In this document: positions 4,935 through 54,451 of the stretch, piece after piece
How positions within the stretch are numbered: position 1 is the stretch's first letter
Layout: each line of letters starts with the position of its first letter
Origin: Mobula birostris
Taxonomy: Eukaryota
Direction of reading: 5' to 3'
DNA length: 64,000 bases
NCBI RefSeq assembly: GCF_030028105.1
Contig: NC_092386.1
Coordinates: forward strand, 16,795,258-16,859,257
Position numbers and translations under genes: made by a program
The notes under the pieces: model-generated
Seen by the model: the letters and a program-made list of their open reading frames with translations, nothing else
What the model was told of the DNA's origin: nothing
The model's database searches: none

Positions 4935-5045
4935 GCACGCAAAATGCTAGATGAACTCAGCAGGCCAAGCAGCATCCGCAGAGGAGAATAAACAGTCAAT
5001 GTTTCATGTTGAAACCCTTCATCATCTGCAGAATCTCTTGTGTTT
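4935..5045. mobile_element. Short two-ended PLE remnant
   Basis: Minus-strand arm with a decayed hammerhead motif followed by the plus-strand terminal atctgcagaatctcttgtgttt. Confidence 0.6.
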
Positions 5046-5666
5046 ACAAAGCAAATACAGCTTCTTTTTCACTTTTTAATTGCCTACACCATCTTGAAGT
5101 ACATCGTTTAAGCAAAGAATATCAAGTCAACTCGGTAATTCAGATTCAGGCTGAGTCCAGAGCTTCGACCACATCAAACCTTTGCATTTTATGATCTGCA
5201 TCCTTGTGAAGTTGACAAAATGCCAGGTTAGTCAGAGGAAATCTGGAGTCTGGTTGAGCAGCTGTAAGAGGAAAGCAATGCATTTGCAATAAATTGAAAC
5301 TAATTCCATGTGAGCAGTTAATTTGTTCCTCCCATCACTCGGAACTGGAAGTGTACTGGAAACAGATTCAAAAGTAACGTTCACAAGAAATCTTCATCAG
5401 TACTTGGAAGAAAAAACAACGCATGGTGAAAGGGCAGCGTGTGGAATTATTGGACGTGGTATTGGCATTGGCTTTTTATTGTCGCAGATACCAGAATAGC
5501 AAAAAGCTTGCTTTGCATTGTGTTTATACACATCACATCATTACACCGTGCTGAAATTTGTGACGAGAGGCCTAGGCGAGGATGGTAAGGAACCAATTGC
5601 TGAAGTACCTGAGACTAGAATTGAGACACAATTTCAAGACTGAGACGAGAACAGGGTTCTTGACTA

Positions 5667-6585
5667 CATACTTTATACTTTATTGTCGCCAAACAATTGG
5701 TACTAGAATGTACAATCATCACAGCGATATTTGATTCTGCGCTTCACACTCCCTGGATTACAAATATTAAATATTACAAATATTAAAAATAGTTAAAATT
5801 AGTAAATATTAAAAATTTAAATTATAAATCATAAATAGAAAATAGAAAAATGGGAAGCAAGGTAGTGCAAAAAAACCGAGAGGCAGGTTCGGATATTTGG
5901 AGGGTATGGCCGAGATCCAGGACAGGATCCATTCAGCCGTCTTATCACAGTTGGAAAGAAGCTGTTCCCAAATCTGGCCGTACGAGCCTTCAAGCTCCTG
6001 AGCCTTCTCCTGGAGGGATGAGGGACGAAAAGTGTGTTGGCTGGGTGGGTCGTGTCCTTGATTATCCTGGCAGCACTGCTCCGACAGCGTGCGGTGTAAA
6101 GTGAGTCCAAGGACGGAAGATTGGTTTGTGTAATGTGCTGCGCCGTGTTCACGATCTTCTGCAGCTCCTTTCGGTCTTGGACAGGACAACTTCCATACCA
6201 GGTTGTGATGCACCCTAGAAGAATGCTTTCTACGGTGCATCTATAAAAATTAGTGAGGGTTTTAGGGAACAGGCCAAATTTCTTTAGCTTTCTCAGGAAG
6301 TAAAGGCACTGGTGGGCCTTCTTGGCAGTGAACTCTGCTTGGTTGGACCAAGTCAGGTCATTTGCGATATTGACCCCGAGGAACTTAAAGCTTTTGACCT
6401 GTTCCACTTGCGCACCACTGATGTAAATTGGGTTGTGTGGTCCGCTACTCCTTCTGAAGTCAACAACCAATTCCTTCATCTTGCTGACGTTGAGGGATAG
6501 GTTATTGTCTTTGCACCATGTCACCAGGTTCTTAATTTCCTCTCTGTACTCAAACTCATCATTACCCGAGATACGGCCTACAACT
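5667..6585 (-). mobile_element. 5'-truncated Rex-Babar clade LINE (RT C-terminal part, ORF 5829..6524)
   Basis: WCKDNNLSLNVSKMKELVVDFRR...FKFLGVNI...LYFLRKLKKF...NSFFPTVIRRLN; tail caataaagtataaagtatg. Confidence 0.85.
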
Positions 6586-6702
6586 TTCTCATCATGCTAG
6601 ATGAGAAACTGATGAGACTAGATGAGAATCCAAACAAGACAGAAATCCTAAACTCAATCACAGACTAAACCAAAGCTGAGATGACAATTGAGCAGTGAAC
6701 CT

Positions 6703-7631
6703 TTGTCTTCTTCTTCTGACTTTATACGGTGGTTGGCAATCCAACTTAAAGGTACAATACCTCCAGCAACTGGACTGGAGTGTGGTATAGAGAGCTGGGA
6801 AATAAAGCCCCTATTCGTTCTCAATCAAATGAAAACTAAATTACCCCAAAAAGCCCTGTAAGTTTTAAATAATGAAAGACAATATTGTGAATTAAATTAA
6901 AGTAACTTCCATAACTTATTAATGTGTTTAAATGAAAACTATCAACCCCTAAGGCTAGTAGTGCTGCCTGCATTTGCTTTTTTTCAACCTTATATGCTTC
7001 ACATTGTAAAATAATATGTTCAACTGTTTCATAATGATAACAAAACCTACACACCCCAGAGTGAGGTCTTACAACAATATAAAAGGAATAATTAAGCATA
7101 GTATGCCCAATTCTAAGTGGAGTCAATATATTTCCTTTCCTTCTTGTCTTCCTCCCTTCTCCCATCAATCCAACAGTTTTATGTATTTTGTAAAGGGGTC
7201 TCCCTTTATGCGTATTATCCCAAAGTTTTGCCATAATCCCCTAAATCTAAAACTTAGCCCCACCAAGCCTTTGGCTTCTGATTTGCTAAATAGAAGGTCT
7301 ATATCCACAGATGAACTTTTAACAGCTTTTTTGGCCAAACAATCAACCCGCTCATTCCCCTCAAGACCTCAATGTGCAGAGACCCATTAGAAGCAGATAT
7401 GAAGACCAATATTTAGAAAGTGATATAAAGTTTGAAGAGCTTCCAGCAGTAAATCTGACCGACTGTTAGAATGACCTGTTTGACTAGTCAAAGCTGAAAA
7501 AGACTGTGAACAAATTATAACTTTGCTAAAACAGATTTCCTCCACTCACTGTAAGCCCAAAACGACTTAGTTCTGCAGTACAAACTGATAAATAGCGGGT
7601 AAGATGCTTCTTTATTGTTACCTGCAATTCA
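6703..7631 (-). mobile_element. 5'-truncated I-group (Nimb-like) LINE with RNase H and C-terminal CCHC motif
   Basis: WVSAH*GLEGNERVDCLAKKA (RNase H C-terminus), LRIGHT...CRFCYHYETVEHIILQC zinc knuckle, (GAA)n tail. TSD agcagtgaacct 6691-6702 / agcattgaacct 7632-7643. Confidence 0.8.
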
Positions 7632-8375: not shown

Positions 8376-8511
8376 GTCCTTTGAAAACTAGAAGAACTCG
8401 TAAGCTTGCTGCCTCAATACAAGAGAGTTTCTTGGTGTATGTCTCATCAAAGAGATGCCACCCCAAATACAGACCATCCCTTCAGTACAGCACTGCCTGG
8501 ATTACATGTAC

Positions 8512-9050
8512 TACTTTCAGTGGCCACTTTATTAGTTACCTCCTGTACCCAATAAAGTGGCCACTGGGTGTGTGTTTGTGGTCTTTTGCTTCTGTAGCCC
8601 ATTCACATCAAGGTTTGACATGTTGTGCGTTCAGGGATGCTCTTCTGTACACCACTGTTGTAATGCATGGTCATTTGAGCTACTGTCACCTTCCTCTCAG
8701 CTTGAACCAGCCTGACTATTATCCTTTGACCTCTATCATTAACAAGGCATTTTTGCCCACATAACTGTACTTCACTGGATGTTTTTTATGCTTTTTGCAA
8801 CATTATCTGTAAACTCTAGAGACTATTGTGCACGAAAATACCAGGGGATGAGCAGTTTCTGAGATACTCAAACCACCCTGTCTGACACCAACAATAGATC
8901 CATTGTAAAAGACAGCTAGGTCACAGTTCCTCCCCATTCTGATGATGTCTGCATGCTTCTATGCATCGTGCTGCTGCCACATGATTGGCCGAATAGATAC
9001 TTGCGTGAAAGAGCAGGCGTGCAGGTGAACCTAATAAAGTGACCCCTGCG
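8512..9050 (-). mobile_element. Internally deleted Tc1-family DNA transposon (family A) with a palindromic left terminus
   Basis: Terminal repeat cagtggccactttattag... versus right end acctaataaagtgacccctg; body collinear with 14330-14835, which encodes a Tc1 N-terminus. Confidence 0.8.
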
Positions 9051-10622
9051 TTTGGTCGCAGGAGGAGAGATTTAACTGACAGATCCCTGACTCTGGGTCA
9101 AGAGTGCTGCTACCAGCCAAATTGGCACTTAAGCAGGATACATGCAGGGCTCCAATATAAATCCAATTAATTCCCTGAGCAAAGATAACCTTTGTAGTTC
9201 ATGAATGACAATATAATTAGGTATTTTTTAGAAATAAGCTTTGGGTATTCCACTATTCCCTAGAAAATTCCCTTCTGACCTTCATACAGTATTTTTTTTC
9301 TTCTTTTCATCCTGTTAATTAGAACATTCCATGGTCACTTCTGTAAGCCTCCAGGGTTTAAATAAAATGATTTTGCTATTAATAATGTTGAATATCATAA
9401 TTATAAAACTTATACTTTAAGACATGAAAAATGCATTCTAAAAAGAAAACAGGTATTTCTGATTTCTTTCACATTTAAGACATAGTACAGGGGATTCAGA
9501 TGGAAGATTATATTTATTTTTCATTTGAAGGTAATGGAGTAAGGACTTGCCACAATTACTGTTGCTGATCAGGGCCAGACCAGCACTGCCAGTCACAGCA
9601 CAGTTCACATGCCTTCGATTTTTATGGTGCACAATCTCTACATAGTATGGCTGCTTGCAGATTGCAGTAAACTGCTGCGTTAAGAAACAGCCTCACTGGT
9701 GTTGGTTCCTTATTGTCACATGTATCAAGATAATGTGAAAAGCTTACTGTCTATACTGATCAGATTATTACACACTGCACAGAGTATTTTAACTTTTAAG
9801 GAAACTACAACTCGTGTTCTCAGTATCATTTATTTATTTATTATTATTTGTTTTATTTTGCATTTGCTCAGTTTGTCTTCTTTTGCTCATTGGTTGTTTG
9901 TCAATCTTTGTTTTATGTATAGATTTTCATTGATCCTATTGTATTTCTTTGTTCTAATGTGAATGCCTGCAAAAAATGAATCTCGGGGTAAAATATGGTG
10001 ACATATACATACATTTATAATACATTTACTTTGAACTTTGATTTTCAGGTTAGAACTAAGTAAAATAGTTACAGAGAAAGTGCAGTGCAGGTAAACAATA
10101 AGGTTCAAGATCATAATGAGGTAGATTATGAGGTCAAGAGTCCATCTTTTCTACCAGATTTAGATAACTGTTAGACAGAAGCTCTCCTTAAGTCTGTCGG
10201 TTTGTGCTTTCAGGTTTTTATACCTTCTGGCCGACAGTAGAGGGGAGAAGAGAATTTCCTGGGTGCTTATGGTTCTCGATTAAGCTGGCTGCTTTACCGA
10301 GCCTGCAAGAAATGCAAACAGAGTCCATAAGGAGGATGATTTACACGTTGTGTTGATCTGTGTTCACAACCCTCTGCAAGTTTCTTGCAGTGATGGTTAC
10401 TTGTCAGAATTCATGGCTCTGTCTTAATTGCGCAGTACTTCTTTAACCCAACCTGTGAGTGGATTATTGAAAGGTCAGACTATGGTGGCTGCCACAGAAG
10501 TAAAGTTCTAAAAGTCACAATAAAGTCCTAAAGTCCTTTGGATACTGAAGAATTCTAGTGCCCGCTGCCCCAAATACTGGGCCATTCCTCAGTACAGCAC
10601 TGCCTGGATCACATGTAACATA

Positions 10623-17285: not shown

Positions 17286-18495
17286 ATACATATCCTAGAC
17301 AGCATTCTTCCCTGAACGGATAATTAGTTAATTTTCTATTTGTGGAATCTCACTAAATGTATATTCATTGCTGTTTTCCTACATAAGCACAGTGACCATG
17401 CTTGAGAAATAATCAAAAATGGTTTTGGAAATTCCATAGGATGAGATAATATGCGAACACATACTTTCCCCTTTATAATCTTCTCTTCCATAGTTGTCTG
17501 GCTTTCTGAGGGGCAGGTGTGAACTTTGAAGATGGGGAGAAATCCGGCTTCCAACGCTATCATGGGAAACAGTCTTTTCCCTTCCTTCTGTTTGCCTTCT
17601 GATTCCTTTGCGGCAAAGCCTCCAAGACAAAGTGCCCCAGCTGGGATACATTATTCAAAATGCTTGATTATAATTGTGTTTTGAAGCCCATCTGGGTCCT
17701 TTTTTCGTTTGTAAACCTGGTTATAATGAAGTCAGCAGGCAAACAGGAAACTAGCCGAAGATTGTCATCCAAAAGCAAAAAGAAAATTAGCGCCACAAGC
17801 TGGATTTCTCAGCTCTGCGTATGAACACAGTTCAACGCCAGGGTTCTGTGTGTATGTAAGTAAATATAACCAGTGCTTTTTGTTTTAAGTATCGTCCCAG
17901 CTGGAATTCACCCACCAGCTTGGCAAAACTGGACTCCCATGTGACTGAATTCCTCCTGCCTTCAGTATTTGTTTTTAGTTTTGATTTGACTAGATGAAGT
18001 CCCATCTCCAATGATCATTATCTGTAAGATGCTAGCCACTTGCATAATAATGTTCCATTGATCGCAGCCAAGAAGGAAAATAGTGATGCAAGCTAAATAC
18101 GGTTTCATTATGCCCCAGAGGCATTATGTTCAGACCTATATATAGGTTATGCTGTTGAAAAGGTTAAGGGAGCAGTCTAATGGCTTAGCAGTAGGCTAAG
18201 CATTCATTTATCAACCCAAAGCCACGGGCTCGATAGCTGTCATTGCAATCTGACTGCCAGGCTGAAATCAGCTTTATTCATTTGTAACCCACGCGGCTAA
18301 ATGGTCCATTTTATATCAGCAGAGTATCTTTTGAATGTGGGAGGAATGCTCTGTAGCTCTTGTTTTTAAATCCATCTTTTATGTTTCCTCAGCTGATCAT
18401 TAGTTCAGTCATTCAGGGTACAGCATCCAATACAGCTCTGTTTTAATCATTTGGATCTGTGGTGAAAATCATTGAAGTGATTTTACTTTTAAAAT

Positions 18496-18702
18496 GACAC
18501 ACACTCAAAATGCTGGAGAAACTCAGCAGGTTGTGCAGCGTCTACAGAGAAGAATAAAGAACTGACATTTCGTGCTGTGACCCTTCAGCAGGAGTCCTGA
18601 TGGAAGGTCTTTGCCCAAAATGTCAGCTTTTTATTCCTGCTGAGCTCCACCAGTAATTTCCGTGTTACTCTGGATTTTCAGCATCTGCAGAATCTCTTAT
18701 GC
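18496..18702. mobile_element. Miniature head-to-head PLE insertion with 13-bp TSD
   Basis: ttacttttaaaat at 18483-18495 and 18703-18715; two inverted PLE 3' ends meet at about 18595. Confidence 0.8.
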
Positions 18703-19864
18703 TTACTTTTAAAATCTTACCAAATGGGAAGACTATTCTAATCGAAGGAGAGGAAAAAGTCATCTACCAGTCCAAACACAGTAAGTCTTTACAAACACAG
18801 AGCCATGCATCTTAACTGATCCTGTTTCAAATCCAGTGAATTTCATTCTATCAAGAGCCAGTTAATTTCAGCCTCTCCATGTCCAGCACATCTTATTTAG
18901 TGCAGATCTGCCTCACCTAATTAATTCAAATCTAATAAAGTAGAAAGTCAGGAAGCTGCGTGCTTCACCCAGTGTCTGTCCAACATAAAACAGCTGCTGC
19001 AAATATAAATGCATTATTATTTAGCAGTGAAGCCATCTCAATCAATCGCAATTTCCAAGAGAAAGTACTGATTGTAAGTGGGATTTAATCATAGGTGAAA
19101 TCTTTATATTGATCAATGTGTATAACAAAAAGAAAGAAAAGCATAAAGAAAGTCTTCTCCGAGGATCATCAGCTTGTCGTGGCGGAGAAGCGTGTGCGTT
19201 TCTGAGATCCCAAGAGTGATGCATTTGGAGTTTAGCTCCTGGTAGGGTCAACCATGGTGGTAAGGTCAAGAAGAAGGTTCCAGACAAAAACCTGAATGGG
19301 GGAGCTGGCGGAAGGTGATGACATACCACAATGTCAGTGATGCAGAGGAAGGCTGTGGCAGTGAAGGTCTCCAGTCATCTTGTGCACCACTCCAATGGAC
19401 TCTGACCCCAATCTGCAAAAGCACTTTATGTATCATTTTGTTTTGTTTTAATGGCAGGAAAAAAACCTTTATAAATCCTAAACTGTATAGCATTAACAGA
19501 TTGAACCAAAGATACCTAATGGCAGCTGAACATTTTCCTAAAATACTCCATGAGTTTCATCATGAAAGTAGACCATGCCCTAATCTTCTAATAGCCTAAA
19601 CTAATTCATTAAAAAATATAATGAAATATATGGGTTGGGGAATCAGGGACAAGGGGGCATACAGTTAAGGTGAGAGGGGAGAGATTTAACAGGTATCTAA
19701 GGAACCATTCTTTCCATGCTGATGATGGTCAGTATATGAATGACTGCCAGAGGAAGTGGTTGTGACAAGTTCAAGTTTAATTGTCATTCAACTGTACATG
19801 TGTACACAGTTAAAGGAGGCATTGTTCCTCTGGGGCCAAGGTACAAAATAGAGTGCATAGTCAT

Positions 19865-20403: not shown

Positions 20404-20577
20404 ATAGTCACACACAGCACATATAGTTAGGATAGCACATATAGTTAGGATGGCACATACAGTCACATAAAGTATTATTAACCCAAGTCCCTGAGAGGCA
20501 TGGCCTGCATATTGATGCAACACACATCAAAGTTGCTGGTGAATGCAGCAGGCCAGGCAGCATCTGTAGGAAGGGGT

Positions 20578-20620
20578 GCAGTCGACGTTTCAGGCCGAGA
20601 CCCTTCGTCAGGACTAACTG
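20578..20620 (-). ncRNA. Minimal type I hammerhead ribozyme motif in the PLE 3' region
   Basis: Minus strand UAGUC-CUGACGA-AGGGUCUCGGCCU-GAAA-CG-UC-GACUG: catalytic core, helix I UAGUC/GACUG, short helix II, palindromic ACGU in place of helix III. Confidence 0.75.
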
Positions 20621-20908
20621 AAGGAAGAGTGAGTAAGGGATTTGAAAGTTGGAGGGGGAGGGGGAGATCCAAAATGATAGGAGAAGACAGGAGGGGGAGG
20701 GATAGAGCCAAGAGCTGGACAGGTGATTGGCAAAAGGGGATACGAGAGGATCGTGGGACAGGAGGTCCAGGAAGAAAGACAAGGGGGGGGGAACCCAGAG
20801 GATGGGCAAGAGGTATATTCAGAGGGACAGAGGGAGAAAAAGGAGAGTGAGAGAAAGAATGTGTGCATAAAAATAAGTAACAGATGGGGTATGAGGGGGA
20901 GGTGGGGC

Positions 20909-22946
20909 CTAGCGGAAGTTAGAGAAGTCGATGTTCATGCCATCAGGTTGGAGGCTACCCAGACGGAATATAAGGTGTTGTTCCTCCAACCTGAGTGTGG
21001 CTTCATCTTTACAGTAGAGGAGGCCGTGGATAGACATGTCAGAATGGGAATGGGATGTGGAATTAAAATGTGTGGCCACTGGGAGATCCTGCTTTCTCTG
21101 GCGGACAGAGCGTAGATGTTCGGCAAAGCGGTCTCCCAGTCTGCGTCGGGTCTCGCCAATATATAAAAGGCCACATCGGGAGCACCAGACGCAGTATATC
21201 ACCCCAGTCGACTCACAGGTGAAGTGTTGCCTCACCTGGAAGGACTGTTTGGGGCCCTGAATGGTGATAAGGGAGGAAGTGTAAGGGCATGTGTAGCACT
21301 TGTTCCACTTACACGGATAAGTGCCAGGAGGGAGATCAGTGGGAAGGGATGGGGGGGACGAATGGACAAGGGAGTTGCGTAGGGAGTGATCCCTGCAGAA
21401 TGCAGAGGGGGGGGAGGGAAAGATGTGCTTAGTGATGGGATCCCGTTGGAGGTGGCGGAAGTTACGGAGAATAATATGTTGGACCCGGAGGCTGGTGGGG
21501 TGGTAGGTGAGGACCAGGGGAACCCTATTCCTAGTGGCCTGGTGGGAGGATGGAGTGAGAGCAGATGTACGTGAAATGGGGGAGATGCGTTTAAGAGCAG
21601 AGTTGATAGTGGAGGAAGGGAAGCCCCTTTCTTTAAAAAATGAAGACATCTCCCTCGTCCTAGAATGAAAAGCCTCATCCTGAGAACAGATGCGGCGGAG
21701 ACGGAGGAATTGCGAGAAGGGGATGGCGTTTTTGCAAGAGACAGGGTGAGAAGAGGAATAGTCCAGATAGCTGTGAGAGTCAGTAGGCTTATAGTAGACA
21801 TCAGTAGATAAGCTGTCTCCAGAGAGAGAGACAGAAAGATCTAGAAAGGGGAGGGAGGTGTCGGAAATGGACCAGGTAAACTTGAGGGCAGGGTGAAAGT
21901 TGGAGGCAAAGTTAATAAAGTCAATGAATTCTGCATGCGTGCAGGAAGCAGCGCCAATGCAGTCGTCGATGTAGCGAAGGAAAAGTGGGGGACAGATACC
22001 AGAATAGGCACAGAACATAGATTGTTCCACAAACCCAACAAAAAGGCAGGCATAGCTAGGACCCATACGGGTGCCCCTAGCTACACCTTTAGTTTGGAGG
22101 AAGTGGGAGGAGCTAGAGGAGAAATTATTAAGAGTAAGGACTAATTCCGCTAGACGGAGCAGAGTGGTGGCAGAGGGGAACTGATTAGGTCTGGAATCCA
22201 AAAAGAAGCGTAGAGCTTTGAGACCTTCCTGATGGGGGATGGAAGTATATAAGGACTGGACATCCATGGTGAAAATAAAGCGGTGAGGGCCAGGGAACTT
22301 AAAATCATCGAAAAGTTTAAGAGCGTGGGAAGTGTCACAAACATAGGTAGGAAGGGATTGAACAAGGGGTGATAAAACAGTGTCGAGGTATGCAGAAATG
22401 AGTTCGGTGGGGCAGGAGCAAGCTGAGACAATAGGTCGGCCAGGACAGGCAGGTTTGTGGATCTTGGGTAGGAGGTAGAAACGGGAAGTGCGGGGTGTGG
22501 GAACTATAAGGTTGGTAGCAGTGGATGGGAGATCCCCTGAGCGGATAAAGCCGGTGATGGTGTGGGAGACAATGGCCTGGTGCTCCTTAGTGGGGTCACG
22601 ATCGAGGGGTAAATAAGAGGAGGTATCCGCGAGTTGTCGCTGTGCCTCGGCAAGGTAGGGGTTATTACGCCAGACTACAACAGCACCCCCCTCATCGGCG
22701 GGTTTAATAATAAGGTTAGGATTAGTGCGGAGGGAGTGGAGAGCAGAGCGTTCGGAAGGAGTGAGGTTGGAATGGGGACAAGGTGCGGTGAAGTCAAGAC
22801 GGTTGACGTCCCGTCGGCAATTAGCGATAAAGAGATCCAGAGCAGGCAGAAGACCAGAGCGGGGTGTCCATGAAGAAGAGGAGGGTTGAAGACGGGAGAA
22901 GGGGTCATCGGTGGGGGTAGAAGAGTCCTTGCCGAAGAAGTAGGCA
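20909..22946 (-). CDS. Penelope-like reverse transcriptase plus GIY-YIG endonuclease, 5'-truncated but open for about 678 codons
   Basis: IIKPADEGG, FYLLPKIHK, GRPIVS, TMDVQSLYTSIP, GVARGTRMGP, LRYIDD, FLDL, and VIYCVWCSRCGLLYIGETRRRLGDRFAEH. The MKPHSG start in the ORF track comes from an inserted fragment. Confidence 0.93.
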
Positions 22947-23022
22947 CCTGAGTGTGGCTTCATCTTTACAGTAGAGGAGGCCGTGGATAGACATGTCAGA
23001 ATGGGAATGGGATGTGGAATTA

Positions 23023-23221
23023 CCCCCAGCCTCCCCCCTCCCCCCTCTGATCCCAGCTCTCATCCGTGCCGGGTCTTTACCATCCCCTCCGACCTTCAAC
23101 TGTCGGAGGCAGAATGCTCTGTTCTCAGTAAGGGCCTGACCTTTGTCCCCCTTCGCCCACACCTCAGCGAGTTCCGTGTTCGCCACGATGCGGAACTTTT
23201 CTTCCGCCGTCTCCGTCTCCG
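23023..23221 (+). mobile_element. Inverted PLE ORF segment immediately upstream of the RT arm
   Basis: LSEAECSVLSKGLTFVPLRPHLSEFRVRHDAELFFRRLRLR, whose natural continuation AYFFGKDSS starts at 22946 on the opposite strand. Confidence 0.85.
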
Positions 23222-23532
23222 GAGGTTGGTGAGAATGTGGACTGAGTTGCCAGTGGAAATAGTGGATGTAGGTTTGATTTCAATATTTAAAAGCAATTTT
23301 GATTGGTGCATGGATGGGAGCAGTTTGGAAGGCTACCGTCCGGGTGCAGATCGATGTAACTAGGCAGATTAATAGCTTAACATAGATTAAATGGGCCGAA
23401 GAGCCTGCCTCTGTGATGTAGAGTCATAACACAATGACTCTATAATGAAATTGAATTATTAATTACTAATCAAGTCAAGAGTGACATATCTGAAGCCATA
23501 GCTGATGAAATACTTCAAATTACCACACAGGA
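23222..23532 (-). repeat. Inverted near-identical copy of host segment 25298-25608 embedded in the PLE insertion
   Basis: 311 bp; I found only two mismatches by eye. Confidence 0.93.
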
Positions 23533-24285
23533 CGAGGGAGATGTCTTCATTTTTTAAAGAAAGGGGCTTCCCTTCCTCCACTATCAACTCTGCTCTTAAA
23601 CGCATCTCCCCCAATTCACGTACATCTGCTCTCACTCCATCCTTCCGCCACTCCACTAGGAATAGGGTTCCCCTGGTCCTCACCTACCACCCCACCAGCC
23701 TCCGGGTCCAACATATTATTCTCCGTAACTTCCGCCACCTCCAACGGGATCCCACCACTAAGCACATCTTTCCCTCCCCCCCCCCTCTGCATTCCGCAGG
23801 GATCGCTCCCTACACAACTCCCTTGTCCATTCGTCCCCCCCCATCCCTCCCCACTGATCTCCCTCCTGGCACTTATCCGTGTAAGTGGAACCAAGTGCTA
23901 CACATGCCCTTACACTTCCTCCCTTACCACCATTCAGGGCCCCAAACAGTCCTTCCAGGTGAGGCAACACTTCACCTGTCAATCGACTGGGGTGATGTAC
24001 TGCGTCCGGTGCTCCCGATGTGGCCCTTTATATATTGGCGAGACCCGACGCAGACTGGGAGACCGCTTTGCTGAACATCTACGCTCTGTCCGCCAGAGAA
24101 AGCAGGATCTCCCAGTGGCCACACATTTTAATTCCACATCCCATTCCCATTCTGACATATCTATCCACGGCCTCCTCTACTGTAAAGATGAAGCCACACT
24201 CAGGTTGGAGGAACAACACCTTATATTCCGTCTGGGTAGCCTCCAAACTGATGGCATGAACATCGACTTCTCTAACTTCCGCTAA
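23529..24285 (+). pseudogene. Second PLE arm: thumb/linker and GIY-YIG coding remnant with frameshifts
   Basis: ORFs 23505..24074 and 23959..24285 match the C-terminus of 20909..22946 (RTREMSSFFKERGF...YIGETRRRLGDRFAEH...MNIDFSNFR). Confidence 0.9.
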
Positions 24286-24575
24286 TGCCCCACCTCCCCC
24301 TCGTACCCCATCTGTTACTTATTTTTATGCACACATTCTTTCTCTCACTCTCCTTTTTCTCCCTCTGTCCCTCTGAATATACCTCTTGCCCATCCTCTGG
24401 GTTCCCCCCCCCCCTTGTCTTTCTTCCCAGACCTCCTGTCCCATGATCCTCTCGTATACCTTTTGCCAATCACCTGTCCAGCTCTTGGCTCCATCCCTCC
24501 CCCTCCTGTCTTCTCCTATCATTTTGGATCTCCCCCTCCCCCTCCAACTTTCAAATCCCTTACTCACTCTTCCTT

Positions 24576-24618
24576 CAGTTAGTCCTGACGAAGGGTCTCG
24601 GCCTGAAACGTCGACTGC
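24576..24618 (+). ncRNA. Minimal type I hammerhead ribozyme motif in the PLE 3' region
   Basis: tagtc CTGACGA (24585-24591) agggtctcggcct GAAA (24605-24608) cg TC gactg. Confidence 0.75.
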
Positions 24619-25389
24619 ACCCCTTCCTACAGATGCTGCCTGGCCTGCTGTGTTCACCAGCAACTTTGATGTGTGTTGCTTGAATTTCCAGCATCTGCAG
24701 AATTCCTGTTGCCTGCATATTGATGTTGTCCTGGAGACACACTTCTGCAAGAACAAACACACAGCAGTTCCTCATCTCGCCCTGTGTCAGCAGGTTAACA
24801 CTGAACAGCAGGCACATTAACAGCATTTAAAAGGTATTTAGACAGGTGCATAGAAATGGTTCAGATGGAAAAGGGACAGTTGTGGGCAAATAAGACCACA
24901 AGACCATAAGGTACAGGAGCAGAGTTAGGCCTTTGGCCCGTCAAATCTGCTCCACCATTTCATCATGGCTGATCCAATTTTCCTCTCAGCCTCAATTTCC
25001 TGCCTTCTCCCTGTATCCCTTCATGCCTTGACCAATCAAAAATCTAGCTTAGCTAGGAATCTTGGTTAGTATGAAGCAGTTGGGGCAAATGGCCTGTTTC
25101 CATACTGTAGTAGTTTATGAAAAATATCTGCAGTATATGCTTTTGCCTTATCTACATTGGACAGCAACATAAACATATTGATAGGTGATGTTAATTCGAA
25201 GGAAGCTTAATTTATTCCAATGGCATTTTGTTCAGTAATAATCAAAATTTGACAGTAGAAAGTAATGTTGGATCCAAATGTTCTGAAAATTTTAGTTTCC
25301 TGTGTGGTAATTTGAAGTATTTCATCAGCTATGGCTTCAGATATGTCACTCTTGACTTGATTAGTAATTAATAATTCAATTTCATTATA

Positions 25390-26105
25390 GAGTCATTGTG
25401 TTATGACTCTACATCACAGAGGCAGGCTCTTCGGCCCATCTAATCTATGTTAAGCTATTAATCTGCCTAGTTACATCGATCTGCACCCGGACCGTAGCCT
25501 TCCAAACTGCTCCCATCCATGCACCAATCAAAATTGCTTTTAAATATTGAAATCAAACCTACATCCACTATTTCCACTGGCAACTCAGTCCACATTCTCA
25601 CCAACCTCTGAGTGAAGCCGTTCCCCCTCATGTTCCCAATAAATACTTCACCTTTCATCTTTAACCCATGACCTCTAGTACTGTATAGTCTCATCCAACC
25701 ACAGTGGAAAATGATTGCTTACCCACATAATTTTGTATACCTCTATCAAATCTCCCCTCACTCTCTTACGCTGTAGGGAATAAAGTCCAAACCTGTTCAA
25801 ACTTTCTAATAACTCTCAAGTCGTCAAGTCCCTGCAACATCCTTGTTAATTTTCTATGTAGTCTTTCAATCTTTCCTGTAGATAGCTGATCAAAGCTGCA
25901 CACAATACCCCAGATTAGGCCTCACCAACATTTTATACAACTTATACATAACATCCCAACTCCTGTACTCAATTCTGTGATTTATGAAGGCCAAAGTGCC
26001 AAAAGCTCTCCTTATAACTCTATCTACCTGTAATGCCACCTTCAAAGAATTATGGATCTGTATTCCTAGATCCCTCCATTCTACTGCACTCCCCAGTGCA
26101 GTACA
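25390..26105 (-). mobile_element. CR1 3' fragment
   Basis: RDLGIQIHNSLKVALQVDRVIRRAFGTLAFI...LYKMLVRPNLGYCVQL; FTQRLVRMWTELP. Confidence 0.85.
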
Positions 26106-33614: not shown

Positions 33615-34772
33615 AGTAATACATCCCTTACAGGTCCTTCAGCTGGAGACCACGCCGACTACGGTTCCCACCCGGATAGTCCCAATTTCCTGTGTTTAGT
33701 CAGCCATATCCCTCTAAGCCCCATACCTTCACGTACCTATCCAAGTCCTTCTTAAATGTGCTATTGTACTTGGCTCAACCACTTCTTCTAGATGCTCATT
33801 CCAAATACTCACACCCTCTTCCCCCCTCTGCACCCTCACACCCAAAATTTATGCCCCCATCGTTCTGGTCTTTCCTACCTTTGGAGAATATTACTGTCCT
33901 CTCATAATTTTACACATTTCTATACTGTCATCTCTCGTTTCGAAGAGTAGAGACCTAGCCTGGCCAATTTCTCTCTCTAGTCCTGGCAACACCATTGTAA
34001 ATATTTTCTACTCTCTTTACAGTTTAACCACATCCTTCCTATAACAGGGTGGCCAAAACTGTACATTATACTCTGAATGCGGCCTCACCAATGACTTATA
34101 CAGTTGCAACATAATATCCCAACTCCTAAGGGTCTCAGCCCGAAATGTCAACTGTTTGTTCATTTCCATTGATGCTGTCTGACCTGCTGAGTTCCTCCAG
34201 CATTCTGTGTGTGTTCCTGTACTCAGTGCCCTGATGGATGAAGGGCAGCATGCTGAACACCATTTTCAATATACTGTCTTCCTAGGATACTGCTTTCAAT
34301 GAACTATGCACTTGTATTCCTAGGTGCCTCGGTTCCATTACACTCACTTGTGCCCTACCACTCATAGCATAAGTCCTACACTAGTCTGACTTCCCAAAAT
34401 ACACCAACCCCTGTGGCACACCACTAATAACCAGCCTCCATTCCAAGAAACGACCTTCAGCCACCAACAAGAGAAAATCTGCAAATGCTGGAAATCCGAC
34501 TAAAGTCCTGCCAAAGGGCTTTGGCCCAAAATGTCGACTGTATTTTTTTTCCACAGATGCTGCCTGGCCTGCTGAGTTCCTCTAGCATTTTGGGTGTGTG
34601 GCTTCAACCACCCCTCTGCTTCCTACCTCTGAGCCAACTTTGAATCCACTTAACTCGCTCTTCCTGGATTCCATGGGACTCAACCTCATGGATCAGCTTT
34701 CTGAGCAGGATGTTGTCAAAGGCCTTGCTAATGTCCAAATAGGTGACATCCACTGCCCTACCCTCATCTAGA
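33615..34772 (-). mobile_element. Older CR1 fragment hosting two PLE 3'-end insertions (34129-34215 and 34466-34601)
   Basis: Decayed reverse-complement RT motifs such as ttgtcaaaggccttgctaatgtccaaat (LDISKAFD). Confidence 0.7.
34466..34601. mobile_element. Miniature two-ended PLE insertion with 11-bp TSD
   Basis: Flanked by cttcagccacc / cttcaaccacc; the left arm is the inverted terminal ~32 nt and the right arm runs from the hammerhead motif to ...tgtgtgg. Confidence 0.7.
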
Positions 34773-34774
34773 GT

Positions 34775-35512
34775 AACACACAGAAAATGCTGGAGAAACT
34801 CAGCAAGTCAGGCAGCATCTATGGAGAGGAATAAAGAGTCGGCATTTCTGGCTGAGATCCTTCATCAGGACTGGAAAGGAAAGAGCAAAAGCCAGAATAA
34901 GAAGGTGTGTAGAGGGGAGGGAGTACAAGCTGGAAGGTGATGGGTGCAGCCAGGTGAGAATAAGTGGGTGGGTGAGGGCAGTTGGGATGAAGTGAGAATC
35001 TGGGAGGTGGAAGAAGTAAAGGCCTGAAAAAGAAGGAATTAAATAGGAGAGGAGAGTGGACCATGGGAGAAAGAGAAGGAGGAGGGGCACCAGGAAAAGA
35101 GAAAGGGTATGAGGAAGCCAAACTAGGGAATGGAAAAGGAGAGAAGGAGAAGCGGGGGTGAAATTACTGGAAGCTGGAGAAGACAATGCTCATGTCAAGG
35201 CTTTGTAAACAAAATATAAGGTATTGCTCCTCCAGTCTGAGAGTAGACTCATCATGACAGTCGAGGAGGCTATGGACCAATATGTCAGAAAGGGAATGGT
35301 GAATGGTTGGCCACTGGGAAATCTTCCCTGTTGTGGATGAAGAAAAGGTGCTCGATAAAGCAGCCCCCCAATCTACAGTGGGTCTCACCAATGCTGAGGA
35401 AGTCGCACCAGGAATACCAGCTACGTTAGATAACACCAACAGATTCACAGGTGAAATGTTGCCTCACCTGGAACGACTGTTTGGGGCCCTGAATAATAGT
35501 GAGGGAGAAGGT
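34775..35512 (-). mobile_element. Degenerate PLE 3' fragment (GIY-YIG remnant, pyrimidine-rich UTR, hammerhead remnant)
   Basis: HDESTLRLEEQYLIFCL; minus strand ccagtcctgatgaaggatctcagccagaaatgccgact. Confidence 0.8.
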
Positions 35513-35785
35513 GAATTGTCAAGAGTAGCATTTGTCGCTTGCCCTACCAGCGGGTTACAACATTTGATAGATCAACCTCTGCAATTTCATAGAACACAGA
35601 ACATAGATCAGTACTGTACAGCACAGGAAAAAGCCCTTTGGTCCACGGTGCCTATGCTGAAGATGAAGCCAAATGAAACTAAATCTCTTCTGCCCGCACA
35701 TCATCCCTATTCGTCCATTCCTTGGGTATTCTTGTCTCTTAAACACAATCACAAGCAGTCCATTCCAGGCACGACCCATTCTCTG

Positions 35786-39000: not shown

Positions 39001-40786
39001 GAACCCCATAATGAAGGTGAGTTCATTGACAATGGGAATGTCGATTCCACTTTTGCAATGGCACGGTAGTGTTGCAATTAGTACGATCCCTTTACAGCAC
39101 CAATCGTCACTGATTGGGGTTCGATTCCCATCACTGCCTGTAAAGATTTGTTCTCCCTGTAACTGTGTGGGTTTCCTCCGGGAGCACTGGTTTCCTCCCA
39201 CAATCCAAAGGTGTACAGTTAGGCTTAGTGAGTTGCCGGCGCACTATGTTGGAACCAGAAGCGTGGCAACATTTTCAGGCTGCCTCCCAGCGCCTTCACA
39301 GACTATGTTGGTTATGGACGTAAACAAAGCATTTTACTGTATTTTTCAAAGTTTCAATGTATCATTAACAAATTAAATTAGTCTTAATGCCTTCAGATAT
39401 GCTGTGCTGAAGAGCTGGCTGCACATTACATCACAACGCATCTGTTTCATCAGCTTTACTCCAACCATCGCTAGCACGTGGGTTGGCGCAGTACCATAAC
39501 AGTGTGTGTAACACTATTACAGCGCCAGTGACTTATTTTTAAGTTAACGTTTATGACTTTTGTTTAACGATTTCTATATTTTGCAATAAATTAATCGATT
39601 TGAATTGCTTTTATGCACCTCCGACCATAGACATTTAAAAGCAGTTCAATACCCTTTAACAACAGCAGACTGTCAAAAGGCCGGCAGAGCAGTCTGGCGA
39701 TAGGACCTCAGAAGCTGCTAACTGAGGTCTGGTTGCTCCTTGCAGGCTACTCTGTTTCATGGGACAGTACTGACCGTGAATAATGCTGCTCGACTCACCC
39801 TGCAGGTCCACAGAAAGGGTGGCTCTGGGTTTAGCACATGTGAAAGACATGAAGTATTTATTAGATTTGGAATGACCTAACCTGTAGCGCATATAATTAT
39901 TTTTTCTCTGAAGAACTTAAAAATATCAAAAATATCGACCCTGATGCCATAGATTTTGTTGATGGGAAAAGTCTCAGAAATTTCAAGGGATGCACCATGA
40001 CCTTTTGCTCTTCATTTAAAAAAGTATTTTCCTTCCCAGACTTCCAAACCTCTTCTTATCCAATTTCGTGCAATACAAGATAAACAAAATGTCAGATGAA
40101 ATCACAGTATGGAGTATCGATTTGATCTACAGAAAAGACATATAGCTTGCAGTAAATGCCCACCTGAAATCTCCCTTTCCAGGCAGCTAAATTGAAGCTT
40201 GATATACACCAGTGACCATTAACAATTTGGCCAAATATAGGATAAACATTTCAAATTTATGTGTTGCTGGGAGCCGTAAGTGGACTCATTCCCATTTTGC
40301 TGAATTACTGATACCTCTTCAAAGTTTTTTTTTCCACTTAGGTGCAAAGTAAAATTGAGTGTTTTAGATTGGCTGAATGATTCAGCAGTTCAAAAAATTG
40401 GATCAATATAGAAACATTGTCTCAGTTTCCCATCATTCTGCAAAATCATAGTCAGAGAGTACTGTAGCACAAAAACAGGCCCTTTGGCCCATCTAGTCCA
40501 TGCCGAATTATTATTCTGCTTAGTCCATCAACTTGCACCCAGACCATACCCTCCAAACCCCTCCCATTCTTTTACACCATTCCAATACAAAGGAATTTTG
40601 TGCATCAAAGACCGGAGAAATTCAATCATTCCTGAATAGCAGTGTGACTCTGATATTTTACAGTAGACGTATTCATACAGGTGAGGTCTTGATGTGAGTT
40701 TGGATTATGATTGCAATGTAAAAGCTCAGACACGTTTACAAATCCCAGACACCTCCTTATATTAAAGCAGCACTTGTCACATCAAA

Positions 40787-40932
40787 AACACGAGAGATTC
40801 TGCAGATGCTGGAAATCCAGAGCAGCATACAAAATGCCAGAGAAACTTAGCAGGTCAGGCAATATTTGTAGAGGGGATTCTGGCTTCTTCCCCTTTCCTT
40901 TCCAGTCCTGATGAAAGGTCTTGGCACGATTA
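40787..40932. mobile_element. Miniature two-ended PLE insertion with 11-bp TSD
   Basis: gtcacatcaaa at 40776-40786 and 40933-40943; inverted full 3' end on the left, plus-strand hammerhead fragment on the right. Confidence 0.75.
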
Positions 40933-40959
40933 GTCACATCAAATAGACTTTGAATTTAG

Positions 40960-41760: not shown

Positions 41761-41829
41761 TTGGACAGGAGCAGAGTTCACCAAACACCAGTACCAGAGG
41801 GATAGATTCCTCAAACATACTCATGCTTT

Positions 41830-42211: not shown

Positions 42212-44750
42212 CCTCACACCAATGATAGTTGACTTCATACCTGCTTTGGTTTCAAGGATCAACTTTTTTTGCCATATACATTTACATGTATCAGGAATTT
42301 GCCATGGTGCATTGGCGTGACATGCAACAAAAAATCAACATCCAACAATTACAAAGAACATAAAATTATATAAAAAATAAAGTTAAAGGTTAAAGTGTGG
42401 ATATGGCTAAAATGTGCATACATATATAAATACCAGCATATACAATGTGAACAGCACTACATAAAGTGGTTTGAGGTGTTTACAGTGCAGTGACTGAGGT
42501 AAAGAATAGAAGTGGGGGGGGGGGTCAACTATAATAGATGATTAGATTAACTTGCTGGGGGAAGAAATCTTTAAGATGCTGTGAAGTTTTTGTTTTAATG
42601 GCCCTATAGCACTTTCCAGAAGGGAGCTTTTTGAAAAGGCAGTTTGCAGGGTGGGTAGTGCCTGTAGTGATTTTTCCTATCCGTTCCTTTGTTTTGGACA
42701 CAGTAATGGCAGACTGCAGCCAATGATTTTTTTTTCCTGCTAAGCTGACAGTTCTCTGTAGTTTTCATAGTTTGTTAGGTGCTACACCAAACCAGACAGT
42801 AACCAAAGGACAATTCATGAAAGAGGGAAGGGTTGATTAGTGAACTAGGGAAACTGGCACCAGCAGAGGTAACTTATGGTTTCCAACATACAAAGACCTT
42901 GATATAGTTGTCAAATCCGATGGGAGATAGGTAAGCCAATTGTGCACCAATTATTCTTACCATTGCCGCTTAAGGTACAAATGAAAAGCTGATAATATTT
43001 CCAGCTTCTTCTGCATTTATTTCACACTTGGGTACCACCAGCCTTTGCACAGGAACAGAAAAAACTTGCAGAAAATTGTAAACTCAGCCAGCTCCAACAT
43101 GGACACTAGCCTCCCCAGCACTGAACACACCTTCAACGGTGATGCCTCAAAAAGATGGCATCAAAAAGGACTCCAATCACCCAAGCCATGTCCTCTTCTC
43201 ATTAATGCCATCAGGGAGGAAGCACAGGAGCTTGAAGGCACACACTGAATATTTTAGGGATGGCTTCTTCCCCTCCAACATCAGATTTCTGAATGTTCCA
43301 TTAATCCATTTACACTACCTCACTATTTTTTTCTTTTTTTCCTCTCTTTTTGCACTACTTACTTAATTTAATTTATATATATGTTGAGATAAGGGCATCA
43401 CCAGCAGACAAACTACAGTATATTTGGGTGGTGGGGTGGAGATGCGTCTCTTCCAAAGGAGATGTAAGCTGCTCCTTCCCTCCACTAACCTGTAGATCAC
43501 CCTGAAAGGTGTAACACCTGCTTAGCTCCCCCTCCCCAACCGATCAGGGCCATGGGAGCAGGTGGTGGATGGTCGTATGAGAAGCTGGTGCATTTCACAA
43601 GTCCTGGTTATGCGACCACTGACGCCAGGCAGACAATCTCTGAAGAGCATTAATAATCGCTGGAGTCACCCAGCTTGCAAAGACACTGTCCAGAAGAAGG
43701 CAATGGCAAACCACTTCTGTAGAAAAATTTGCCAAGAACAATCATGGTTATGGAGACCGTGATCGCCTACATCATATGATGCGACACTTAATGATGGGGG
43801 TCCTGGTGAATGGAAAAATGAAGGTTAGATAGAATTGTGTACAGCACGTTTTGCTTTGGAAGATCTCATCTGCAGGAAATCATTGATGCAATGTTCGTTA
43901 TTTTTCTATCTACTAACTTTAATTGACAAAGATTTGTGGGCAAAACGCCAGTGGTTGTCGGAAATATCAGCAGAATTCTAGTTGACAGTGCAGAGTCAGG
44001 AATCAATAGACATATACTGTGCTTCATATCTCTTTACCTGTTCCTGGGATGTGAACTTGAAAGTCAAACGTGCAGAGAGAACTTCAGCTCTGGTGTCTGG
44101 GTGGGCTCAGATGCAGGCAAGAACATAAATAAGCTCGGAGTGGTAATAGGTCAGGAATAAAAACAAATATTATAAACACTCAACAGGTCAGGTAGCATCT
44201 GTAAAGAAGGAAAACTTGTTAATGTTGAGGATCCCCTTCGTCAAATAAGTCTGATGCAAGATCTTCAAACTGAAATGTTAATTCTTCTTCTTTTGCCACA
44301 GATACTTCCTGACCTACTGAGGTGCTGGCAAATTCAATATGGTCATCACTCAATAAGAACAATATCAAAGGATATGTTATCTTTAGTATATAAATAAAAA
44401 GTCTCCCAACAGCACATGTTTAAAGACCATAGGCATCCGTCCATAATCACAGCCCAGAGTCAGAATCAGAATCAGGTTTACTATCACTGACACGAGTCGT
44501 AAAATTTGTTGTTTTGAGGCAGCAGTGCAGTGTAATACATAAAAAATACTATGTTATAATAAGAAATGTATTAAAATTTAAATAAATGTTTCAAAAAGAA
44601 AGCAAAATGGTGAGTTTGTTCGTGGTCCATTCAGATATCTGATGGTAGAGGGAAAGAAGCTTTTCCTAGTGCATCATCAAGCCCCTGTACCTCCTCCCTG
44701 TTAGTAGCAATGAGAAGTAATCAGAAGGAACTGCCAACAAATAGTACTTA

Positions 44751-51520: not shown

Positions 51521-51790
51521 CGGGCAGCATGGTAGCATAGTGGTTAGCACAATGCTTTACAGTACCAGTGACCTGGGTTCAATTCCCGCAGCTGCCTGTA
51601 AGGAGCTTGTATGTACTCCTCGTGACCGCGTGGGTTTCCTCCGGATACTGTAGTTTCCTCCCATAGTCCAAAGATGTACTGATTGGAAGTTTATTTGGTC
51701 ATTGTAAATTGTCCCGTGATTAGGTTAGTTTTGCTGGAATAGCTGAAAGGGCCTAGTCCACTCTGTATCTCAATAATTAAACAATAAATA
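51521..51790 (+). mobile_element. HE1/V-type tRNA-derived SINE (best-preserved copy)
   Basis: gggcagcatggtagcatagtggttagc (A box), ggttcaattcc (B box), gtgggtttcctccgg central domain, CR1-like tail gaaagggcctagtccactctgtatctc plus A-rich end. Confidence 0.8.
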
Positions 51791-54236
51791 AATTTTAAAG
51801 AGAGTTCAGACAAACCAAAAGGTTACAGGTATTAGATTCAGATTCAGATTCATTCATTTATCACGTGTGCATCGAAATGTACACTGAAATGCATAGTTTG
51901 TGTTAACAACCAACACAATCAGTGGATGTGCTGGGGGAAGCCCTTAAGTGTCGCTACACATTCTGGCACCAACATAATATGCCTATACTGTTTGGTGGAA
52001 CAAAATGTACTCTGGAAATCTGACAGACATGTTGTAAATATTTAGGATAATTTTTTTATCTAGTTCTAGTGTTTTTCCTATGGTGTCAAACTTTATTAAA
52101 AACTCAGCTATTCAAGTTAATAAATGATACAATGCTGTGGTATAAATGAATCATAAAGGATTGAACTGAGAAATGTCAAACAAGTATCAAACAATTCACT
52201 GATTTCTCAGTAAGTGAACAGCCTTCCACCCTTTCTGTTGCTACTCTGCTAAACATCCTCTCTGTAAGATGAATGGCCATTTTATAATCTAAAGAAAAAT
52301 TCATTACTAAATTGTACAACTATTACTAAGTCATCTGGATGCACTTTGCTATCCTCTCAGGGTGCCATTTCCTAGAAATGAGGAATTGAAGATATTTTCT
52401 CAGCTTTTGGAAGAAATCCCAAGAGGTTTTTTTGAGTTAAAGCTGCTGAATAACACTTTGTTTACCATTTGCTGGGGTACAATTAGCTGTTCACTAAATG
52501 TACACGTTGTTAAGCATGGATTGAGTTTAATTTCATGGAGACTTTTCATCTGTTGATGGAGCATCTATGCCAGTGCAAAATTGATTTTCTACAACAGTGA
52601 AAATACTGAAAGACAATTTTTTTTTGGCTCTAAGGCAGAGATCATGAGAAGAACTGAGATAACTGCAATGAAAATTTTTAAAAAACTACAGATGCAGGAA
52701 GTCAAGCAGCACCTATACAAAGAGAAAAAAGCTAATATTTCAAAAGTCAAAGTAGATTTATTATCAAAGTGCATACATGTCACCATTTACACCCCTGAGA
52801 TTCATTTTCTTGCAGGCATTTACAGGAAAAGACTGACAAACAACCAAATATGCAAAAGAAGACAAATTGTACAAATAAAAAAAAACTAACACTGACAACA
52901 TGAATTGTTGAGTCCTTGAAAGTGAGTCTGTAGGTTGTGCACTCTTAGAGTTGAGATGAGTGAAGTTATTCACACCTGATCAGGGGCCTGATGGTTGAAG
53001 GGTAATAGATGTTCCCAAACCTGGTGGTGTGCTACCTAAGGCTTGATGGCAGTTGTGAGAAGAGAGCATGGCCTGGATTTGGGGGTTCTTTGATATTGGT
53101 GCTGCGTTCTTCTTTGAAGACCTGAATTCTGATGAAGGGTTTTCAACATGCCCTTCACCACAGATACTGTTGAATGTTTACAGTACGATTTTTTTTCTTG
53201 AGAAAGCTGAAGTCCACACATCCAAGACAAGTGAATAATTTTGTTACACCTATGAGTAAAGTCAAAAGATGGATAAAGCATCCTTACTCAATCAATTATC
53301 AAGGGCTCGAGGTTAAGAGGAAAAAAAGTTCTATTCAACATAAACCTGGATTATTGTTTTTTAAAATGAGCTATTTGTTCAATACATAATGATCTACTGT
53401 ATATTTCTTTGACATAATTTTAAACTATTTTCAAACCAATACAGCTAATGTAATAGTTAGGATATTTTATCAAATATATTGTTACTTGTGATGTTTTCAA
53501 TATTCTCCGTCACATAATGTTAAACATCAAATTATAAATATTACAAATCATCCCTCAGCAAATAGCACTACATCTGGTTGACAAAAGAATGGAAAGATAA
53601 AAGGCAAACCACATCAAAGGCCTTGCACCTTCAAGGCACAAGTCAAACCTGAATGGTTCAAATATGTTTTGCTCTAGATACTTCAGAAGGGTGCACCGCA
53701 ATCTGCAGAGAAAAAAGGGCTAGACCTAATAGATCTCTTATTTGAAGTGCTGTAATTATTTCAAACTAATGCTTTAAAAAAATCATTATATCATTTAATT
53801 CCAGGCAATCATCTTATTTAGGTTAATGTACAAACTAGCAAACGTATACATTTCAATATAAAATGTCTATATGATACAGTGAAAAAGCTCAGCTTTACAA
53901 TTTTTGCCTCATTTAACATGCAGATTCAACAACACATAATCTGCTTTTACAGGTTTGTTTTCACTGTTAATAATAATATTTAAAGTAAAGGAGAGAGGTT
54001 GGAAAGATTGTTTTTTTTAACTTGTCAGATGGCACCATCAGTGCAGAATGTTGGCAGTGCTCTTTTACTTCCTGTCATTGACATGTGCCTGAACCATTTG
54101 TTCATGAAGCGTAGTGGTGATACGCTGGAACTCAGCGCTGTGTCTTGGTTCACAACTGCTATCTTGTGATTTGTATTTTATAATCAGAGTGGCAGTGTTG
54201 ACACTCAAGAACTTAAATCGAGCTTTACAATTCTGG

Positions 54237-54397
54237 ACACAAGAAATTCTGCAGATGCAAGGAATCCAAAGCAAGACATACAAAATGCTGGAGGCATTCA
54301 GTCGGTCAGGTAGCATCTATGGAAATGAATAAACTATCAGCGTTTTGGGCCGAGTCCTGAAGAAGGGCGTCGGCCTGAAACTTCAACTGCATATTCG
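54237..54397. mobile_element. Miniature head-to-head PLE insertion with perfect 13-bp TSD
   Basis: tttacaattctgg at 54224-54236 and 54398-54410; two inverted arms meet within their hammerhead motifs at about 54355. Confidence 0.82.
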
Positions 54398-54451
54398 TTT
54401 ACAATTCTGGTCCCCCTTTAACATGAGAAGTGTAAATTCAACAACATTATA

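Follow-up and report, generated by a model that had tools for sequence, protein, structure and literature searches.

Penelope-like elements (PLEs) with an endonuclease (EN+) typically have an inverted pseudo-long terminal repeat (pLTR), a tail on one end and a target-site duplication (TSD) of 9 to 10 bp (PMC3846280). The tail of canonical EN+ PLEs is 30 to 40 nt long and found on one end only, and a single TSD (8 to 10 bp in A. vaga) surrounds the whole unit (PMC3846280; PMC8557442). In Penelope of D. virilis, Pen2a and Pen3a of A. vaga and the Naiads, an inverted, 5'-truncated copy lies on the 5' side in head-to-head orientation, which is the most frequent arrangement and for which self-priming was proposed (PMC3846280). 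This is the sole explicit model that we found; PMC8557442 repeats the inverted-pLTR structure and calls the origin of tandem and inverted PLE structures undefined. Inverted termini are also shown in PMC2377424, and ribozyme pairs on opposite strands, 100 to 700 bp apart, are described in PMC4209133; PMC12602865, on a killifish Neptune element, contains nothing on structure. For the Poseidon element PAc of Anolis carolinensis, cleavage and extension of both strands have been observed in vitro and a dimer has been predicted (PMC11167929), and in L1 the top-strand 3' end primes internally either on the same RNA (twin priming) or on a second RNA (dual priming), the latter being a postulate that is indistinguishable from twin priming (PMC2837659). 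Here we describe a 64-kb stretch of the Mobula birostris genome (NC_092386.1, positions 16,795,258 to 16,859,257; "the window"), in which copies of a PLE show the same head-to-head arrangement.

With profile searches whose seeds were copies in the window itself, and with BLAST, we identified 17 loci carrying a 3' end of the element, 7 of them two-armed and 10 single-armed. (Locus 47040-47144 is counted on its tail match alone; weak matches near 52700 and 53150, with E about 0.06, and four with E above 1 are left out.) At all 7 two-armed sites (B, D, E, G, J, L and N in Table 1), the left piece is on the minus strand and the right piece is on the plus strand, and at five of them a single TSD surrounds both arms. 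Based on this orientation, the TSDs and the content of the arms, we conclude that reverse transcription primed from both ends of the target break, in one retrotransposition event per site, is probably the best explanation for these sites of one window. The two-armed architecture is already known, and the window is a new batoid example of it. An earlier note on this DNA overstated the contrast with established PLE knowledge, since head-to-head inverted pLTRs within one TSD are already typical (PMC3846280; PMC8557442) and twin and dual priming have been described for L1 (PMC2837659). The window adds junctions that speak for two-ended priming rather than for the published self-priming model, as well as a sharp cDNA stop. 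Compared with canonical PLEs, the window sites have longer TSDs (11 to 15 bp), most inserts are only 136 to 207 bp long without an open reading frame (ORF), and several second arms are internal pieces; no two sites are alike in structure.

Direct repeats of 13, 15, 11 (with one mismatch), 11 and 13 bp had been reported at five sites, and all five were found at the junctions given for them. Exact repeats of at least 11 bp arise by chance at 1 of 2,992 random and 0 of 3,000 nearby position pairs; with one mismatch allowed, the corresponding values are 1 of 2,994 and 2 of 3,000. When 24 arms were placed at random, 20,000 trials yielded at most 2 abutting head-to-head pairs, compared with 6 observed and a seventh with a spacer. 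Both null models are exceeded, and inverted pairs and flanking repeats are therefore more frequent than chance predicts. None of the five TSD sites has a second TSD at any inner junction, and none of the five inserts contains TSD pieces longer than 7 nt. The presence of one TSD around both arms and of none at the inner junction supports a single event from both ends. Paralogous flanks served as proxies for empty sites at G, A and F only. At G, leaving one TSD copy out of the count gives flanks that run on as uninterrupted CR1 sequence (17 nt, versus 19 in the paralogue and 28 with both copies). The flanks of D and E have no paralogue in the window (they are unique), and for J and N the matches to repeats lie only at a distance from the junction. 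Sites B and L, which had been taken as decayed versions, do have the two-armed layout, but no TSD was found at either, the best matches of 7/9 and 4/6, respectively, being within the null range. At B, a repeat at 4926-34 was rejected as the TSD since it overlaps tail-matching sequence.

The composition of the arms was described relative to the copy at 60494-60757, with the tail end at 0, the tail-less end at -34, the predicted hammerhead cut after -102 and the start of helix I at -133. The proposal that each site consists of two 3' ends was borne out for D, E and G only. These 3 of the 5 TSD sites have two true termini, and each time one is tailed and the other is tail-less. At J and N, the second arm is an internal piece, the right arm stopping 55 to 75 nt short of the tail-less terminus at -34, and at B the two pieces are the body and outer tail of one single 3' end; at J, N and B, one arm begins at a position inside the RNA. 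At B, E, G, J and N, which is 5 of the 7 two-armed sites, each arm has sequence that is missing from the other. The arms at these five are thus not mirror copies, and one folded-back cDNA cannot explain them. On the RNA, the arms overlap by 0 to 4 nt at G and by about 28 nt at N and are separated by a 16-nt gap at J, while at D and L both arms stop at the same position. Arms within sites are 60 to 97% identical. The arms of D differ at 20 of 74 positions (27%) within a perfect 13/13 TSD (P about 0.017), and the overlap at N has 11 mismatches in 28 positions, also inside a perfect TSD. Because the sites were first noticed through their perfect TSDs, this comparison of TSD and arm divergence is biased at both sites, and it is with this ascertainment bias that the differences at D favour two templates.

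The 4.2-kb site E has the most complex interior. The end of its left arm is joined via a 2-nt microhomology to a 77-bp second copy of part of that arm, which is followed by an inverted ORF piece (X) and by a 311-bp inverted copy of the site's own downstream flank; the flank piece meets the right arm via the 4-nt microhomology AGGA. Piece X stops at residue 123 and the left arm starts at residue 124 (on P0001; 86/87 on P0016), which is an exact abutment. The right-arm cDNA runs into the inverted copy of its own downstream flank, which is what attachment to the right flank would lead one to expect, and site E thus appears to be the expected trace of two cDNAs on both ends of one break. On the bottom strand, the right flank would have been extended by cDNA from the tail end, followed by a fold-back on the same flank, a jump to the RNA at the point where the top-strand cDNA ends, and joining. 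Local inverted duplications from self-annealed ends have been described for L1 (bioRxiv 10.1101/2024.12.14.628481).

In the mechanism that we propose, the GIY-YIG endonuclease would cut both strands about 11 to 15 nt apart and leave 3' overhangs, a cut geometry that we infer from the TSDs. Both 3'-OH ends would then prime reverse transcription, as has been observed in vitro for PAc. As to the order of priming, one end would usually start at the tail terminus (0) and the other at the tail-less site (-34) or deeper in the RNA. The pairing of a tailed with a tail-less end at all 3 sites with two true termini matches the two reverse transcriptase (RT) start sites of PAc. The two cDNAs would grow toward each other and be end-joined via 0 to 4 nt of microhomology, sometimes after template jumps. 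The number of RNAs may vary. Where the arms tile the RNA (G, J and B), both ends may have primed on one RNA by twin priming; where they repeat the same region (D, E, L and partly N), dual priming would be needed, with either a second RNA or a tandem RNA that carries the repeat twice. An inverted internal segment with little or no overlap and an intact TSD, as in twin priming, is found at G, at J and for piece X in E, while the arms of N overlap; microhomology between the target end and the internal priming site is limited to 2- to 3-nt matches at J, N and B, which are decayed copies. If only a single end primes, a single-arm copy with a TSD would result, and such copies (A, about 10 bp; F, 3 bp; H, 9 bp) indicate that one-ended insertion happens too. 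Priming from both 3'-OH ends, as the earlier note had suggested, is therefore the best fit to the orientation, the single TSD and the non-mirror arms, but its symmetric pairs of 3' ends had to be given up.

The element has a tail of about 34 nt. A model of this tail gives 8 matches with E<1e-4 (six of which are the model's own seeds), compared with 0 in the reversed window, and at D, E and G the tail is on one end only. Several "tail-less" ends (34766, 4921 and 44156) extend 7 to 10 nt into the tail (-27 to -24), and so the inner start is a zone and not one base. The signal upstream is repeated within the tail: both start sites end in TGTGTT, and in an older subfamily TCCAGCA recurs about 30 nt apart (60694-60758 and 24650-24711). 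The tail also contains a CTGCAG-centred palindrome, which might help RNA pairing.

Upstream of the start sites is a predicted minimal type I hammerhead, with the core boxes, an unpaired nucleotide before helix II, a palindromic ACGT and 4 of 4 helix I pairs in both arms of E. In the alignment, 76% of cells are paired versus 5 to 46% in slid controls. Covariation is no higher than in shuffles, a hammerhead was not among the Rfam matches, and minimum-energy folding of the terminal 152 nt is unremarkable (z=-0.9). Hammerhead cleavage (after -102) was ruled out as the origin of the arm ends: none of the arms begins at this point, and at 40787 the right arm stops about 6 nt short of it.

The 5' ends of short arms are sharply placed. 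Among the 13 short arms (5' end between -260 and -60), 9 stop at -133 to -128, which occurred in 0 of 100,000 simulations. With one arm per locus, 6 of 9 stop there (2 of 200,000 simulations, or 120 of 200,000 under a narrower null). Two pieces that consist of tail only, six long arms and three loci whose ends are unclear are not part of these counts, and the ends at L are estimates. The arms stop where helix I of the predicted hammerhead has its 5' end, and the sequence there also resembles an initiator consensus. A putative polypyrimidine tract followed by AG lies directly ahead of the core in 5 of the 6 long arms shown and is mutated in the other. In D. virilis, a spliceosomal intron extends up to the 5' end of helix I (PMC4209133). 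Shared exon-1 sequence, which would be a sign of a spliced template, was not found upstream of short arms among the 10 arms shown. The sharp stop could come from the 5' end of the RNA, a splice site or an RT stall. It is conceivable, but in our judgement doubtful, that two-ended priming is a main integration route of PLEs, that a dimer gives one DNA end the tail start and the other the tail-less start, and that the 100- to 130-nt arms are run-off (strong-stop-like) cDNAs that reach the RNA 5' end at helix I. If this were true, the tail, the inverted pLTR and the pLTR length would follow from one mechanism, which would replace the self-priming model.

Under self-priming, a hairpin on either an antisense template or the first cDNA would prime an inverted intermediate, which would be integrated later (PMC3846280). 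Palindromes at inverted junctions have been reported (PMC3846280), and the inner junctions of D (5-bp palindrome with a 1-nt loop) and G (4-bp palindrome) look as this model predicts; moreover, mirror arms are possible at D and L, where both arms stop at the same position. That shared stop position, however, explains the palindrome at D without any fold-back. The requirement for mirror arms fails at the five sites named above, at E there is no palindrome at the junction and part of the target's own flank is included, and the arms of D differ by 27% within a perfect TSD; we therefore consider an origin by fold-back unlikely. Less probable still is sequential insertion, in which a second element hits the 5' junction of the first, or in which inverted arms result from later recombination or repair. 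PAc does cut its own ORF-pLTR junction in vitro (PMC11167929), and the arms of one site are divergent, but the predicted second TSD is not seen at any inner junction, the orientation is always head-to-head, piece X abuts the left arm of E exactly, and the arms tile at G, J and B. A repeat-dense window with 17 family loci in 64 kb might invite chance adjacency or an assembly artefact. The null models exclude chance, and arms that are 60 to 97% rather than 100% identical and bounded by TSDs are unlike palindromic assembly chimeras, so that this explanation is extremely improbable.

Several observations weigh against priming from both ends, as set out above, or against parts of it. The case is made from one window with 7 sites and no empty alleles; 10 of the 17 loci are single-armed, three of them with a TSD; sites B and L are without a TSD; and the palindromes at D and G are those of the self-priming model. 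As to two templates at E, the arms differ at 28 of 1,143 positions versus 2 of 388 for the internal duplications (P=0.018), which hints at two templates, but P is 0.18 without CpG-type changes, and the arm differences were not shown to be shared lineage variants among 11 named shark and ray proteins.

A close experimental parallel is PAc, in which two RT start sites likewise delimit the tail and a hammerhead lies upstream of them; its scenario comprises nicking, reverse transcription, second-strand synthesis and repair, and does not include the joining of two cDNAs (PMC11167929). PAc belongs to Penelope/Poseidon, whereas the window element has a Neptune/Nematis linker (see below), and unlike those of PAc the targets in the window are not uniformly AT-rich (TSD AT content, 33 to 92%). 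L1 twin and dual priming likewise yield inverted fragments bounded by a TSD. L1 primes on poly(A) with an apurinic/apyrimidinic endonuclease; compared with L1, as many as 7 of the 17 window loci are two-armed, and the internal start sites are defined. The inserts resemble MITEs (miniature inverted-repeat transposable elements) in being short, with inverted ends and a TSD, but their arms are asymmetric, variable and divergent pieces of the 3' end of an RT element. No PLE paper with "dual priming," "twin priming" or "strong-stop" was found in the literature searched, which was mostly without subscription journals; two papers mention both Penelope and twin priming, and such a model may be contained in Evgen'ev and Arkhipova 2005 and in Arkhipova 2006. 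The window sites connect what PAc does in vitro, with two strands and two start sites, to products in a genome, and high-copy, TSD-bounded, two-armed miniatures offer thousands of natural tests that separate fold-back, twin and dual priming. An RT related to telomerase that extends the two ends of a staggered cut is also relevant to how second strands and 5' junctions form and to the counting of such repeats in annotation.

The identity of the element was assessed from a stop-free 678-aa frame in site E (22945-20912, minus strand). Pfam matches to RVT_1 (E=2.9e-4) and GIY-YIG (E=8.7e-4) are weak, both falling under the curated cut-off. In a protein search with this frame, 684 of 8,000 scored candidates had E<=1e-30, and most among the matches listed carry an RT family assignment. 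The nearest named proteins are from Mobula hypostoma (90 to 93%), followed by Hypanus and sharks. The frame has the single-ORF layout of an EN+ PLE, RT followed by a C-terminal GIY-YIG endonuclease, and the left-arm frame has the CCHH feature of two cysteines between GIY and YIG (GVIYCVWCSRCGLLYIGET) with downstream histidines. A linker, CKWNKCYTC (C-x4-C-x2-C), precedes the endonuclease, and a C-x2-5-CxxC pattern occurs somewhere in 116 of 120 homologues. Such a linker between RT and endonuclease is found in Neptune and Nematis and not in Penelope/Poseidon (PMC8557442; PMC3846280), which points to one of the former two; in one survey, vertebrate PLEs were either Neptune or Poseidon. The element thus appears to be a Neptune-type PLE, a label taken from the linker. 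Two ray gene models, P0007 (divergent kinase domain 1C) and P0032 (chitinase-domain protein 1 isoforms), consist largely of the element ORF and are likely annotation chimeras or exonised copies. The window contains neither a full-length copy of the element nor a direct-tandem pLTR copy.

Table 1. Positions of two-armed sites, single-arm copies and related features in the window (element coordinates in parentheses or as negative numbers)
Feature	Coordinates	Strand	Description
Site B	4921..5044		Body about 4921-5024 minus (-128 to about -24); outer tail 5020-5044 plus (-23 to 0); no TSD
Site D	18483..18715		TSD 13 bp (18483-95/18703-15)
Site D left arm	18496-18593	minus	Tail-less, -131 to about -34
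Site D right arm	18593-18702	plus	Tailed, -133 to 0, 22-nt gap
Site E TSD, left copy	20503..20517	plus	15 bp
Site E left arm	20518..22947	minus	2.43 kb, tail-less, 5'-truncated; carries 678-aa RT/GIY-YIG frame
Site E, second copy of 20989-21065	22946..23022	minus	77 bp; matches left arm at 100% and right arm with 1 mismatch
Site E, inverted ORF piece X	23023..23221	plus	Between 77-bp and 311-bp pieces
Site E, inverted copy of downstream flank 25298-25608	23222..23532	minus	311 bp, 2 mismatches
Site E right arm	23529..24710	plus	1.18 kb, tailed, frameshifted; predicted minimal hammerhead motif 24581-24616
Site E TSD, right copy	24711..24725	plus	15 bp
Donor of captured flank piece	25298..25608	plus	Genomic
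Site G	34455..34612		TSD 11 bp, 1 mismatch (34455-65/34602-12); within CR1 RT fragment
Site G left arm	34466 to about 34502	minus	Tail only
Site G right arm	34504-34601	plus	Tail-less, -133 to -34
Site J	40776..40943		TSD 11 bp (40776-86/40933-43)
Site J left arm	40787-40877	minus	Tailed, 0 to -91
Site J right arm	40877 to about 40929	plus	Internal segment, from -160 to roughly -108
Site L	44156..44341		Two decayed head-to-head arms meeting near -131 (5' end of predicted ribozyme); outer ends uncertain; no TSD
Site N	54224..54410		TSD 13 bp (54224-36/54398-410)
Site N left arm	54237-54353	minus	Tailed, 0 to about -117
Site N right arm	54353-54397	plus	Internal segment, from -133 to roughly -90
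Arm stops at 5' end of helix I	2578, 5024, 10908, 18593-18595, 34504, 44246-44250, 54353
Copy A, single-arm	2477..2588	minus	In CR1 3' end; about 10-bp TSD (8/10)
Copy F, single-arm	34125..34218	plus	In CR1; 3-bp TSD via flank overlap on paralogue
Copy H, single-arm, older	34754..35548 (element 34766-35535)	minus	9-bp exact flanking repeat
Copy O, single-arm, tailed	60494..60757	plus	Coordinate reference; no TSD found

The TSD of copy A is confirmed by its flanks, which overlap by 9 to 10 nt on the CR1 paralogue. Copy K (41807-41826) is flanked by an 8- to 10-bp repeat. At its 5' junction, some 14 nt bear a loose resemblance to a very short inverted arm without a tail, and K could be an eighth two-armed site. 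The copies at 60924-61034, 61449-61525 and 47040-47144 are older and divergent, have a different terminal sequence, and are probably another subfamily. Copies H (34766, minus) and I (37091, plus), or P (60924) and Q (61525), were rejected as single large insertions, since no shared TSD was seen by eye, the flank search having been made per copy only. Four insertions lie in CR1 fragments (2477-2588, 34125-34218, 34455-34612 and 34766), and three of these are within 700 bp of each other.

The window is also rich in other repeats. A near full-length CR1 ORF2 (endonuclease and RT) at 30159-33250 is interrupted by a stop and a frameshift, and further RT fragments of long interspersed nuclear elements are at 5829-6596, 28605-29267 and 29226-30092. 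A dispersed 300-nt repeat family is present at 8461-8760, 10568-10867, 14224-14523 and 63112-63314, and two of its copies give sub-threshold Rfam mir-9256 matches (34.5 and 31.1 bits; cut-off, 80). A MITE-like repeat with internal inverted symmetry and several copies is found at 44745-45281 and 54432-55006, and a 46-bp tandem duplication (97% identical) lies within a CR1 3' end at 46674-46768.

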